Below the pieces are notes generated by a model. That model made no database searches. It worked only from the letters and a program-made list of their open reading frames with translations, and was not told the DNA's origin. From the NCBI GenBank assembly GCA_050613775.1, contig JBODTK010000152.1:310001-374000 (forward strand): DNA of 64,000 nt, given 5' to 3'. This DNA is from Neocallimastix sp. 'constans' (taxonomy: Eukaryota). The translations under genes were made by a program, and so were the position numbers. Position 1 is the first letter of the stretch. Every line of letters begins with the position of its first letter. This document shows, piece after piece, positions 48,490 through 53,129 of this stretch.

Positions 48490-50037
48490 ATCATATTCAC
48501 GAATAACTGAAACCTTGATTTGACCAGGATAGGTCATTTCGGTCTCAATTCTTTCACGAATTTCACGGGCAAGTTTAAAGGCAGTTAAATCATCTACTTT
48601 GTCTGGAACAACCATAATGCGAACTTCACGTCCTGATTGCATAGCAAAGCATTGATAAACTCCTTCATATGATTTACATATTGTTTCAAGTTGTGTTCAA
48701 TAAGTTTAATGTAGTTTTCAAGTGTTTCACTACGTGCACCTGGTCTAGCAGCTGATAAAGTATTGGCGGCTTGGACTAAGTGAGCAATGATATATTTTGC
48801 TGGTACATCATCATGGTGAGATTCAATTGAATTGATAACTACATCTGGTTCACCAAATTTCTTGGCAAGACGAGAACCAAGTTCAACATGGGAACCATCT
48901 TGTTCAAAGTCAACAGATTTTCCAATATCGTGGAGTAAGCCAGCACGTTTAGCAAGGTTTTGATCTAGACCTAGTTCAGCGGCCATAATACCTGCTAAAT
49001 AGGCTACTTCCATTGAGTGATCATAAGCGTTTTGACCATATGATGTACGATATTTGAGTCTACCAACATTCATTAATAATTTCTTATTAATCTTCGGTAA
49101 ACCGAGTTTAAAGGCTGTTTCTTCTCCAGCTTTACGAATAGTTTCATCCATTTCGCTTTGAACTTTAGCAGTGACTTCTTCAATACGTCCTGGTTGAATA
49201 CGCTCATCTTTGATAAGAATATCAAGTGTGAGTCTAGCTATTTCACGATGAATTGGGTTAAAGCAACTATCAGTAATTACTTCTGGAGTGCCATCGATAA
49301 TTAAATCGACGCCTAATAATTGTTCTAATGAACGAATATTACGACCTTCACGGCCAATAATTCTTCCTTTCATTTCATCCCTTGGAAGAGCAACTGTACA
49401 AACAGTTCTCTCAGTGACTGCTTATTGTGAGAATCTTGATATAGCAATACCAAGTAAGTTTTTAGCTTTTTCATCACTTTCAGCTTTAGTCTCATTTTCT
49501 CTATTTTTGACGTAGTCAGCGATTTCCATTGATAACTTGCTTTCAACACGAGCAAAGATTTCATCTCTTTTTTTTTAACAGATAATTGTGCAATTTTTTC
49601 AAGCTCAAAAATAATGGAATCGATTTTACTTTTGAGACGAGCTTCTTTTTTATCGCATTCTTTAAGTCTACCATTTAAAAGTTCATTCTTTTCTTCAAAA
49701 ATGTTTTCTTTGTTGATGAGAGATGCATCACGTTTATCAGTACTGATTTCACGTTGATTTAATTTGTTTTCTAAATTAGCAACTTCTTGTTTTATTTCGA
49801 GGATTTTTCTCTCAGCTTCTTGTTTCATTTCGGCTACAGTTTGTTTGCCGTCAAGTTGAGCATTCTTTCTAATCTGATCAACTTTAATTTCAGCGTCTTT
49901 AATGATTTTCTCAGCTTTTTAGCGCCTAATTTTTCTTTGAAAACAGGTACAAATTTAACGAGTAAGAAAGCAATAACAGCACCTATAACAAAAGGTCCGA
50001 GGATTAAAGGAAGCCATACCCACCATTCTGATTGCAT
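48490..50037 (-). pseudogene. rny: Bacterial ribonuclease Y pseudogene
   Basis: N-terminal membrane anchor, coiled coil, KH motif [16 protein letters not shown] motif [16 protein letters not shown], and C-terminal [12 protein letters not shown]. Frameshifts at ~49916, ~49570 and ~48692, a stop at ~49423, and the last codons are missing. Shine-Dalgarno AAGGAG at 50047-50052. No introns. Confidence 0.95.
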
Positions 50038-50221
50038 GTGGATTATCTCCTTATTATATAAAGGCCTTATTTATTTATAGATAAAAAGCAATAAATTTAT
50101 ATTATTACAGTTTAATCATCGACCAAAAAAGACGTCGATGAATATAAATTGAATAGAATTAATCTTACTTTTAACAGTTAAAATTCAGGTAATAAGTATC
50201 TTTCGATACGTAGTTATTATA

Positions 50222-50539
50222 TCAATAACAATTTGTTTTACAAAACGCTAAATGTTTTTTCATCTTAAAAAGATTTGCGTGACTGCCGAGTCTTATTAGA
50301 TTAAGACGATTGTATTTAGGTACATCTTCATATATCAAATTAAAATCAGGAGCAACATGACATTCTCGGCAATGTTTATATTTCCTTTTTAAAGGATGAT
50401 CTTTATATTCAATATCTAGCTTCTTTTGATTAATCAAAATTTCAATTAGAAAAAATAAGTCATCAATATTTTTATTTTGACGTTTTACTAAATCGTAATC
50501 TTTTTTAAATTTGTTTGAAAATGTAACTTCTAAACTCAT
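50222..50539 (-). CDS. yafQ: YafQ-family (RelE/StbE) mRNA interferase toxin
   Basis: FKKDY...YKDHPL...RECHVAPD..LIY...RLGSHANLF. Overlaps the antitoxin by 4 nt (ATGA). About 13 extra C-terminal residues may reflect a lost stop codon. Confidence 0.9.
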   Translation of the reverse strand: MSLEVTFSNKFKKDYDLVKRQNKNIDDLFFLIEILINQKKLDIEYKDHPLKRKYKHCRECHVAPDFNLIYEDVPKYNRLNLIRLGSHANLFKMKKHLAFCKTNCY

Positions 50540-50787
50540 ACATCCAAAGCTTTCTTTAAACTCTGAATATCTTTATAAGTCTTTGCGTTTGTTTTGAGAG
50601 ATTTATGAGATTCTTTTATATCATCATTAGGAGTGTGCGCGATAATGTTAAAAGGAATTGAATTTGTTCTGATCACTTGAATATAGAAAAGGTTAATTGC
50701 TGCAGATGGAGTTATTCCGATTTGTTTAAAAACATCTTCTGTACTTTTCTTAATATTTTCATCAATTCTAACATTAACATTTGCCAT
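50536..50787 (-). CDS. dinJ: RelB/DinJ-family antitoxin (83 aa from ATG at 50787)
   Basis: MANVNVRIDENIKKSTEDVFKQIGITPSAAINLFYIQVIRTNSIPF is the ribbon-helix-helix RelB/DinJ signature; the gene lies directly upstream of the toxin. Confidence 0.9.
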   Translation of the reverse strand: MANVNVRIDENIKKSTEDVFKQIGITPSAAINLFYIQVIRTNSIPFNIIAHTPNDDIKESHKSLKTNAKTYKDIQSLKKALDV

Positions 50788-50803
50788 AATTTTTACCAAA
50801 AAT

Positions 50804-50832
50804 AATATATCACATTGTCAATACAATTGCAA
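50804..50832 (-). promoter_or_regulatory. Sigma-70/SigA-type promoter of dinJ-yafQ with overlapping palindromic operator
   Basis: Minus strand TTGCAA-17 bp-TATATT with TG one base before the -10 box. Inverted repeat ATTGT-N4-ACAAT at 50814-50827 lies in the spacer. Confidence 0.65.
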
Positions 50833-50855
50833 AATATAAAGATATCACGTAATAT

Positions 50856-50879
50856 AAAAAGTGCACAAAATACACTCTT
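50856..50879 (-). terminator. Intrinsic terminator-like hairpin after recA
   Basis: Minus strand AAGAGTGTA-TTTTG-TGCACTTTTT: a stem with G-U pairs ending in a T run, just after the recA stop. Confidence 0.55.
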
Positions 50880-50882
50880 ATT

Positions 50883-51771
50883 TTATTCAGCAGATTTGAT
50901 ATAGTTCATTAAGTCTTCAGCCAAACCTGGATGTTCATCAAGGTAGGCTTCTCCTTTTTCAATACCTAATTCAAGGATTTCGGCATTTTTAGAAATTCCT
51001 TTACTATTGATGATGTCAACTTGAACTGTCTTGAATGGAGGGGCGACTTTGTTTTTAACAATTTTCACATTAACTGTGTTTATCAATTCTTATAGATGCA
51101 TATAATTTTAAGGCTCTACCACCAGTTGTTGTTTCTGGATTACCATACATAACACCAACTTTTTCACATAATTGGTTAATGAAGATAACTGTACATGAAT
51201 GAGTGTTCAAGATACCTGTAAGTTTTCTCATAGCCTTAGACATAAGTCTAGCTTGTAGGCTAACTCGGTTCTCGCTCATTTCTCCTTCAAGCTCAGCTTG
51301 TGGGACTAATGCGGCAACACTATCAACGATAATGATATCGAATACACCACTATTAACGAGCATTTCAACAATTTAAAGTTCTTCTTCGCCACTATCTGGT
51401 TGAGAAAGAATTAATTCATCAATATTTACACCTAAAGCGCGAGCCGAGCATATAAAGGATCAATGGAATGCTTGCTCGGCATCAACATATGCTGTTCTTC
51501 CACCTTTCTTTTGGGCTTCAGCAATCGCATGTAGAGCTAAAGTAGTTTTACCACTTGATTCAGGACCATAAATTTCAATAATACGGCCTTTTGGATAACT
51601 ATCTACGCCTAATGCATTATCAATGAGGAAAGATCCAGATGGGATAACATCAACATCAACTGGCTGACGTTCGCCTAATTTCATGACTGAACCTTTACCG
51701 AAAACTTTTTCAAATTCTTTTAAGGCTTCTTCAAGGGCTTTTTGTTCGTTTTTTAATTCATCTTTTTTCAT
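50883..51771 (-). pseudogene. recA: Bacterial recA pseudogene
   Basis: [72 protein letters not shown]. Disrupted by two short tandem duplications (~51440-51475), a stop at ~51374 and two deletions in the 3' third. Confidence 0.96.
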
Positions 51772-51831
51772 ATTTGTTTTACCATTCCTCATTATTAAAT
51801 ACTTTTTTCAAATTAATTTCTCGTTTTTGGG

Positions 51832-52172
51832 CTAAACTTTGAAACTTTTTGAGACAAGTTTGAGTACACACATACGTTGTATGTGTTTACGATCATTTTT
51901 GAGACTAAATTTCTGAGTTATAGTTCCTTTTTTTGTAGCAACAGCAACATGAACTTCTCCAACTGGTTTACTACCTAGTTCACAAGTTGGGCGGCATTTC
52001 CAGTAACAGAAACACATATATCAACTTTCAATACTTTTCTTCCACCTTCAGCCATTTCAATAGCGACCTCAGGTGAAACTACTCCATATTTTTCAATGGT
52101 GTCTTTACTAACCTTAGCTAAACGAATTTTTTCTTCAGCAGTGTATGTGATAAGTCCTTCTTCGAGAAAGAG
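51832..52172 (-). pseudogene. cinA: CinA C-terminal domain (PncC-like) fragment
   Basis: GLITYTAEEKIRL...IEKYGVVSPEVAIEMAEG...VSVTGNA(G)PT...KPVGEVHVAV. Frameshifted at the GNAGP motif; the 5' part is deleted. Confidence 0.88.
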
Positions 52173-52476
52173 CATATGCTTGTGGTACTAATAGAAAAAT
52201 CATTGCCGCATCATTAAGTAATTTATCAGCGATAGGATCAAGAAATTTACCAAAATTAGTGACCAGGTTTTATTTACGAGCAATATGACCATCGAGGAAA
52301 TCAGTGAAAGCAGCAATAATGAAAATGCAGGTAAAAATCAAACACACTAAATTGATACCACTATTTCCAATATCAGGTGCTTTAAAACCTGGAATAAAAG
52401 CTAAAACAAACATAGCGATAATTATTCTAATAATAAGAATAATTTTTGAAATGGTGATTTTATTTGGGAAATTCAT
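52173..52476 (-). pseudogene. pgsA: CDP-diacylglycerol--glycerol-3-phosphate 3-phosphatidyltransferase, 5' half
   Basis: MNFPNKITISKII...AAFTDFLDGHIARK*NLVTNFGKFLDPIADKLL carries the CDP-alcohol phosphotransferase motif with an internal stop, then joins directly into cinA. Confidence 0.9.
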
Positions 52477-53129
52477 TATCTTTCTTAATACTAATGATAT
52501 AATTAGAAAGAACACTGTATTCTTTTGAGAAATCACAGAATGTTTGAAAATTATGCAAATCACTTTTAAATTTAAAATTTTTAATCGTTTTATAAAATAA
52601 ATTCATTTTGAGATAATTTCTTAATGTAAGCATAGTAGTATTGGAATGCTAAATTCTGTAGATTTTTAAAAACTCTTATTTGAAGGACATTATCTATTTC
52701 ATTGGACATAATAAGAAGTTTCTTTATCGTTTTGTTAGAGTCCATATTATCATTATGTTTAAATTTATCCTTTTATTTTATTGCTGCAATTATTTCGAAT
52801 TTATATTTTATATATTTATTCATTTATTAATTACATTAATATTTTTTTTTTGAAAAATACAAAAATAATAAAAAAATAAATATTATTTGTCCAATTTTAA
52901 CATAATAATTTTTTAAACAGTAATCAAATTCATTTAGATAATTATTAAATCACTCTTAATCGAGTGACATATTTAGGTATTTAAATTATAATGGAATTAC
53001 CTTATATATATATATATTTAGACTTAAAGAATAACTTTATTCAATTTATTATAATAATAAAATTACATGATTTAAATGAATATTAAAAAATAAAATACAT
53101 GAAATAAAATATTATATATTATATAATTA

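Follow-up and report, generated by a model that had tools for sequence, protein, structure and literature searches.

A 4.0-kb block of broken bacterial housekeeping genes joined to repeats of the gut fungus Neocallimastix, and its probable origin from a CAG-826 chromosome

Gene content and limits of the block

The stretch analyzed here, called the window, comprises 64,000 nucleotides from Neocallimastix sp. 'constans' (assembly GCA_050613775.1, contig JBODTK010000152.1, positions 310,001 to 374,000 of the forward strand). Part of it, the block or insert, consists of bacterial genes. A Pfam search placed pgsA, cinA, recA, dinJ, yafQ and rny on the minus strand in that order, through the families CDP-OH_P_transf, CinA (two pieces), RecA (three pieces), RelB, YafQ_toxin, and RNase_Y_N with KH and HD, and the alignment of these genes to bacterial proteins required 0 introns. 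The description of six co-oriented, intronless bacterial genes, given by a first-pass annotation made from the sequence, thus stood. The features of the block, in window coordinates, are as follows.

48484..50037, minus strand: rny (RNase Y) pseudogene, with frameshifts of -1 at ~49920, -1 at ~49570 and +2 at ~48696, a TAA stop at 49422-49424, and a 15-bp deletion that loses or shortens the C-terminal RAIETAK
50038..50243, minus strand: rny upstream region, with a promoter (50243-50216), a GTATC..GATAC leader to ~50196, a hairpin (~50117-50142) and a Shine-Dalgarno (SD) site (50052-50047)
50222..50539, minus strand: yafQ toxin gene, frame open; its tail enters the rny promoter and the native stop may be lost
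50536..50787, minus strand: dinJ/relB antitoxin gene with an open frame; conserved columns are missing through the in-frame loss of 4 codons near 50620
50857..50879, minus strand: terminator-like hairpin 3' of recA (z -3.05, 3/200 shuffles as stable)
50883..51771, minus strand: recA pseudogene, with frameshifts of +4 at ~51476 and +5 at ~51443, a TAA stop at 51373-51375, a 44-bp deletion at 51081 and a 69-bp deletion at 50951
51832..52156, minus strand: cinA remnant of the short, CinA-domain form, beginning at codon ~43, with a -1 frameshift at ~51992
52157..52476, minus strand: pgsA remnant, codons 1-107, with a TAA stop at 52270-52272; a ~450-bp deletion fuses pgsA to cinA

The ~450-bp deletion removes the last ~107 codons of pgsA and the first ~42 of cinA. 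Similarity to bacteria extends from 48493 to 52485 (blastn). The left junction lies at 48493, or at ~48483 if the end of rny is read as a 15-bp deletion keeping the native stop, and the right junction at ~52481/2, 5 nt before the pgsA ATG, since other copies of the adjoining fungal repeat align from 52482. Of the junctions proposed earlier, at ~48490 and within 52560-52780, the left one held, whereas the right one had to be moved inward. The block, now 4.0 kb, would correspond to a donor fragment of ~4.45 kb. No further donor pieces were found in the window outside 48446-52500 in a comparison with 65 relative loci, and rnpB was not found in the window. The GC content of the block (32.8%) exceeds that of the 64-kb window (20.8%), as had been noticed, but equals that of the fungal open reading frames of the window (30.0-33.5%), so that GC sets the block apart from intergenic DNA only. 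No transposase, terminal repeat or duplication was found around the insert itself; as nothing brackets it, it was not delivered as a transposon. A plasmid origin was also considered and rejected: 0/63 matching records cover 80%, and the ten listed are 65-69% identical.

Evidence for integration of the block in fungal DNA

The presence of the locus was counted across 24 listed sequencing runs on the stretch 47400-54400, of whose 7 kb the insert makes up 57%. Part of this stretch was contained in 23/24 runs, and at least half of its words in 13/24. We aligned short-read contigs from four of the runs: X1, X3, X13 (an RNA library) and X15 (another organism label); the runs with small shares of the stretch (X17-X24) were set aside. 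In X1, one 4,414-bp contig with a depth of 48.7 spans 48429-52842, and in X3 one 4,416-bp contig with a depth of 20.8 spans 48427-52842, both with 0 other letters and 0 gaps. On the left, the spanning contigs extend 63 bases beyond the point where similarity to bacteria ends, and on the right 361 bases. The depth of the insert was close to the median of seven listed diverged pieces of repeat copies (48.7 vs 39.8 in X1, 20.8 vs 19.3 in X3). In X15, eight insert pieces had a depth of 5.4-6.8, and single-contig repeat variants one of 5.0-5.9. Over 2,038 bp, the X15 pieces show 6 substitutions and 2 gaps relative to the window. Five lesions lie within these pieces with at least 31 bases on each side and three more with less, indicating that the decay is shared with a second organism label. 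Additionally, the exact 105-residue YafQ is present on 23 contigs, the longest of 13,210 bp.

Taken together, the spanning contigs without differences, the single-copy-like depth and the lesions common to X15 indicate that the lesions are biological and not assembly errors. The block is joined at both ends to Neocallimastix repeats and appears to be integrated in fungal DNA in a single copy. The first-pass annotation had proposed that spanning sequence, coverage and the state of the genes in reads be inspected as signs of a chimera: contigs, if short-read ones, cross both junctions in X1 and X3, the coverage agrees with that of single copies of fungal repeats, and the read data likewise show the genes as broken.

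Decay of the block

Frameshift-aware and DNA alignments to relatives revealed 13 lesions across pgsA, cinA, recA and rny, or 14 in total with the 4-codon deletion in dinJ, including deletions of up to ~450 bp. None of these four genes has the intact frame of a functional gene acquired by horizontal gene transfer (HGT). Decay was measured at nucleotide columns invariant in 20-23 relatives, with leave-one-out relatives as the control. In the window 32/1,099 such columns were changed (2.9%), as compared with 198/24,671 (0.8%) in the relatives (Fisher p 4e-9), and the changes went 21 to AT and 7 to GC in the window vs 48 and 98 in the relatives (Fisher p 4e-5). The excess is ~2%, and some of the 2.9% is due to the donor lineage. 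Judged from these columns, an AT-biased excess fits release from selection, that is, neutral decay in a genome of 21% GC. The insert is young in relative terms. The mutation types seen in it are AT-biased changes, short duplications and deletions; by context, changes affected 4/36 CpG, 9/133 CpT, 4/214 CpA and 3/81 CpC sites (edge columns included), too few to call a focus on CpG. A strand bias of G>A changes was considered as a sign of a single-stranded or RNA intermediate and rejected, since the ratio of 15:1 in the window does not differ from that of 26:6 in relatives (p 0.40); the asymmetry is an artefact of which sites are invariant.

The donor

Among named genomes, the closest are metagenome-assembled genomes (MAGs) of rumen Bacilli: UBA4278, RGIG3356, UBA2753 and RUG11432, at 78-83%. 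A search of 301 genomes of the family and of every one of the 37 in the best genus gave a top DNA match of 82%, and a metagenome scan for a closer donor locus also gave 82% as the best among the matches listed. The longest open piece of rny is 92-94% identical to the nearest metagenome proteins. In a quick tree, which had no Acholeplasma row, the RNase Y of the window grouped with UBA4278 in a clade of 42 rows (support 98%) and had an end branch of 0.081 vs a median of 0.035. RUG11432, which belongs to the same family set as the window's nearest genomes, bears the label o__RFN20; f__CAG-826 in a supplement of PMC6785717, which follows an older GTDB, and this label gives the donor family the name CAG-826 (order RFN20); no GTDB label was found through RGIG3356 or UBA4278. 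In the accessible text of the respective sources, CAG-826 is predicted to lack peptidoglycan and spores (PMC10868615), and TGA is a stop in RFN20 (PMC7301438). In the window itself, the beginning of rny has three TGG codons, and TGA serves twice as a stop; the earlier assignment of genetic code 11 was right, though this evidence is thin. The genomes of the donor genus measure 0.6-1.7 Mb. By sequence similarity and the tree, the donor is an uncultured gut bacterium in the genus of MAG UBA4278, family CAG-826, order RFN20, with code 11 and predicted to be wall-less. A low-GC gut Bacilli donor, as first suggested, is thereby retained, and an Acholeplasma-like one is not; nor do the nearest genomes belong to the code-4 mycoplasmas.

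The relatives keep the order pgsA-cinA-recA-rny, as had been stated for Bacillota, with the RNase P RNA immediately 5' of pgsA, and all four genes are whole in all relatives examined. Both pgsA and rny are essential. In three donor-genus relatives pgsA and cinA form one fused frame of 390-405 aa (L181 1791-2984, L183 1700-2917, L184 742-1914). The gap between recA and rny varies in the 21 relatives having both genes: it is 217-361 bp in 16, 565 bp in one, and holds 1.6-1.7 kb of other cargo in four.

The toxin–antitoxin pair

The gap in the block holds a toxin–antitoxin (TA) pair, which has the recA hairpin on one side and the conserved promoter of rny on the other. The antitoxin gene dinJ (PF04221, RelB family) lies directly upstream of yafQ (PF15738), with a stop-start overlap at 50536-50539, and YafQ retains 19/21 conserved columns, with one conserved column changed from L to N. 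A TA pair stood between recA and rny in 0/21 relatives having both genes; relatives of YafQ occur in 14/37 donor-genus genomes, none of them in this slot. A variable slot, and YafQ elsewhere in the genus, suggest that the pair was probably mobile cargo carried by the donor strain, and not an addiction module. In one relative (genome G307, L217 1339-1719) the N-terminus of DinJ is fused in frame to the C-terminus of YafQ, giving ~126 aa, perhaps by an internal deletion of a TA pair.

Expression signals

The SD site reported earlier, AAGGAG, is located 9 nt 5' of the rny ATG. The promoter claim held in part: a TTGTAA-16-TATAAT promoter precedes rny, and its -10 box and GTATC..GATAC leader also occur 5' of rny in 14/23 relatives, but promoter consensus matches were not enriched (16 found vs 19.3 expected). 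Likewise, the terminator is backed by the hairpin and U-run after recA, but a terminator scan called 0 canonical sites and not this hairpin. The earlier picture of raw, operon-scale DNA decaying after integration fits the 14 lesions and the AT-biased excess, but 'operon-scale' is a loose term, since the block contains at least two or three transcription units. In the donor genus (L176-L200; window 50196-50221, minus strand), the leader behind the rny -10 box consists of a GTATC-loop-GATAC hairpin followed by TTATTACC, and it sits 120-174 nt upstream of the rny ATG in the 14/23 relatives. It had no Rfam match in the window or in L198; it is possibly an unnamed cis-regulatory RNA or an operator.

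Flanking repeats and the host window

The block is flanked by the following features.

47677..47689, plus strand: left-hand copy of a direct repeat of 13 bp, which is likely the target-site duplication of the left retroelement-like repeat
47690..48469, plus strand: high-copy, poly(A)-tailed fungal repeat, likely the 3' end of a non-LTR (long terminal repeat) element, tail duplicated
48470..48482, plus strand: right-hand copy of this repeat of 13 bp, lying 0-10 bp short of the left junction
52482..54700 (right end approximate), minus strand: fungal repeat DNA, medium-copy at 52482-52842, then a high-copy decayed fragment resembling a long interspersed nuclear element (LINE)

The 13-bp repeat has exactly two matches in the window, and 0/100 shuffles reach two. 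The left repeat has a summed depth of up to ~1,470x that of the insert (X1); its tail is duplicated (48107-48229 / 48347-48469), and 34 X15 contigs depart into poly(A) past 48469. In the right repeat, loose ends with poly(T) occur ahead of 52842 and of 53017, and FADD and zinc-knuckle-like (LINE-like) motifs were seen by eye only; a Pfam search of both flanking repeats gave no support. For a target duplication of the right repeat only AT-only 8-10-mers were found, which permitted no call. The right repeat has a paralog at 25494-25865; this one diverged copy gives a weak hint that there may be short imperfect microhomology at the right junction. A contig of X13 jumps from 52843 back to 52482 with 11 letters between, at a depth of 480; tandem or circular arrangements of the 360-bp unit 52482-52843 thus exist elsewhere, and the unit is plentiful in this RNA library.

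The window also encodes a Ras-family gene, vinculin-family exons, a CEP76-like peptidase exon, and an Enhancer-of-polycomb exon. Over 1,407 residues the latter matches proteins of Neocallimastix californiae and N. lanati at 100% identity, as against 55-57% for Piromyces; the host is of the N. californiae/lanati type. Among other features of the window are a copia-type gag-pol fragment (3-1814, minus strand), a 100-copy ATT microsatellite (57023-57333), and a fusion of a chitin-recognition domain with a CotH kinase domain (11469-12950, plus strand), CotH being a family of bacterial type that has expanded in gut fungi. From 39294 to 45230 on the plus strand, 1,979 codons follow one another without a stop; this frame has no Pfam match, carries the repeats IIDTGIFDRPILIQ and ETRADTGLWWLFAKPE, with periods of 78, 120, 276 and 354 bp, and then becomes coiled-coil-like. 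At 32700-33080, imperfect, GC-richer repeats with a 15-bp period, GTTGCATTTCCCCAA-like and then TTTGGCGAAATGCAA-like in the opposite sense, suggest an inverted arrangement.

Origin of the insert

We consider it probable (about 0.8) that the block is a single-copy fragment of a CAG-826 (RFN20) chromosome which was patched in as DNA at a chromosome break and is now neutrally decaying and functionless. Donor DNA from a lysed or attached cell would have entered the coenocytic thallus and a nucleus, been ligated by end-joining into a break in a repeat-rich, AT-rich spacer, and afterwards decayed without selection. Several observations weigh against this interpretation. Both ends of the insert fall at gene edges, which random DNA capture does not predict (post hoc chance ~1e-3). 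The spanning contigs stop inside repeats, so that the link of the block to the unique fungal genes of the window rests on the assembly, and the reference for depth was repeat copies assumed to be single, not a unique gene. Eleven of the runs holding the locus are 2018 faecal metagenomes that may represent one campaign, one of the runs may be the source of the DNA itself, and some of the X15 differences, which stem from low-depth contigs, may be errors. X13 contigs cover the block at a depth of 3.8-11.6, which, as DNA may have been carried over into this library, shows the presence of the block and not its transcription. By BLOSUM scores, the amino-acid changes are no more radical than those of relatives (p 0.30). 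An empty site did not turn up, nor did a convincing skip joint among the rows listed. One X1 joint, 47674-52853, was considered as an empty site and treated as chance, its sides being AT-rich and among ~1,000 repeat copies.

The gene-edge ends could also be explained by an RNA route, in which a processed polycistronic transcript, cut behind the RNase P RNA and running from pgsA to rny, was reverse-transcribed by a fungal non-LTR element. The start of the insert 5 nt before the pgsA ATG agrees with this, as does the absence of the rnpB 3' motif, found 26-35 nt before that ATG in 20/20 relatives. The insert ends no more than 24 nt from the rny stop and contains none of the next gene; however, that gene begins a few nt past rny in most relatives, so the transcript should not end there, and the insert contains the promoter of rny as well as a hairpin resembling a terminator. 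Retroelement-like 3' ends adjoin both sides, but neither a sense-strand poly(A) nor a duplication was found around the insert, the 13-bp duplication bracketing the left repeat only. Nor does the G>A bias, shared with relatives, speak for an RNA intermediate. AT-rich spacers offer microhomology to an AT-rich host, and later deletions could trim the insert to spacers; such microhomology or trimming is the simpler account of the ends, and we regard the RNA route as improbable. A mis-joining of the DNA of a wall-less co-culture bacterium to fungal repeats was considered too, since misjoins occur at repeats and the block has repeats on either side. Antibiotics of the penicillin type do not kill wall-less bacteria, and Kudo et al. 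in 1990 reportedly isolated 'associated mycoplasmas' with rumen fungi, to judge from a title. Such a chimera or contaminant is largely refuted and hardly credible, as independent short-read contigs agree exactly in their junctions and lesions and the depth tracks the fungal copies across runs of 49x, 21x and 6x. The genes are whole in all relatives examined, and a living cell with broken pgsA, recA and rny is implausible.

A different possibility concerns function: dinJ-yafQ may still be expressed, keeping the insert by post-segregational killing, or may have been co-opted. These are the only open frames of the block, most of the conserved YafQ columns are kept, and the region is present in the X13 RNA library. 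However, given 11-13 lesions in 3.3 kb, the chance of none in 534 bp is P 0.12-0.17, so the open TA frames are within chance. Moreover, dinJ has lost four codons, YafQ has changed a conserved leucine, no fungal promoter or intron is evident, and a second cistron behind an overlapping stop-start, such as yafQ, is poorly translated by scanning ribosomes. A retained TA function thus seems very improbable, and the block, read as a captured chromosome fragment, is likely a functionless accident.

Relation to known insertions and significance

Bacterial insertions in animal genomes are reportedly treated in a review. Wolbachia-to-host transfers and the decaying bacterial DNA of Curculio weevils (described in the accessible text of bioRxiv 10.64898/2026.07.14.738529) are, like the block, multi-gene, located in transposon-rich regions and mostly pseudogenising. 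In contrast to these, the host here is an anaerobic chytrid-grade fungus, the donor is no known endosymbiont, and the block is single-copy and not packaged in a Maverick or other element. The functional HGT genes of Neocallimastigomycota share the host phylum and gut Bacillota donors with the block. A survey of them counted 283 events, 125 from Firmicutes and 106 of those from Clostridiales; its genes came from poly(A) transcriptomes and were often intron-bearing, matches of >90% identity were removed, and 'pseudogene', 'operon' and 'Mollicutes' have 0 occurrences in its main text (bioRxiv 10.1101/487215). The block consists of broken, intronless housekeeping sequence with an identity of up to 94% to metagenome proteins, so that pipeline could not detect it. 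PMC6712302, in its accessible part, concerns functional domains. The Mollicutes-related endobacteria (MRE) of Mucoromycota are likewise small-genome, wall-less Bacilli relatives that turn up in fungal assemblies (accessible text of PMC11423566 and PMC13315312), but as co-assembled symbiont genomes, whereas the block is a dead piece joined to host repeats, with an RFN20/CAG-826 donor. A 2026 MRE review has 0 mentions of Neocallimastigomycota or the rumen. The CAG-826 pgsA-cinA-recA-rny locus matches the block in order and sequences and differs by the TA pair. In the literature covered, with subscription papers and the HGT tables of the bioRxiv supplement mostly outside its scope, there was no report of the block or of CAG-826 DNA in these fungi. 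A dead bacterial insertion in a eukaryote is a known type of event; this host-donor pair was not found in print.

The block is a young, multi-gene housekeeping fragment in which a promoter, an SD site and TA cargo can still be read. HGT surveys, as far as their accessible text goes, considered expressed survivors and removed near-identical matches; the block represents the unselected input, a rare view of the raw material of gene transfer in gut fungi, which owe bacteria hundreds of genes. It also names an unexpected donor, the uncultured, small-genome and predicted wall-less CAG-826. The insert offers neutral sequence for reading the fungal mutation spectrum and a presence/absence marker among Neocallimastix isolates, and contamination filters would throw out real insertions such as this one. 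It is rather unlikely, though conceivable, that wall-less CAG-826 bacteria live on or in Neocallimastix thalli, as an anaerobic equivalent of the MRE of Mucoromycota, and that the block is one of many fossils left by them, similar to nuclear mitochondrial DNA segments (NUMTs); if so, fungal genomes would bear witness to a symbiosis so far unrecognised and to raw bacterial DNA arriving in steady supply.

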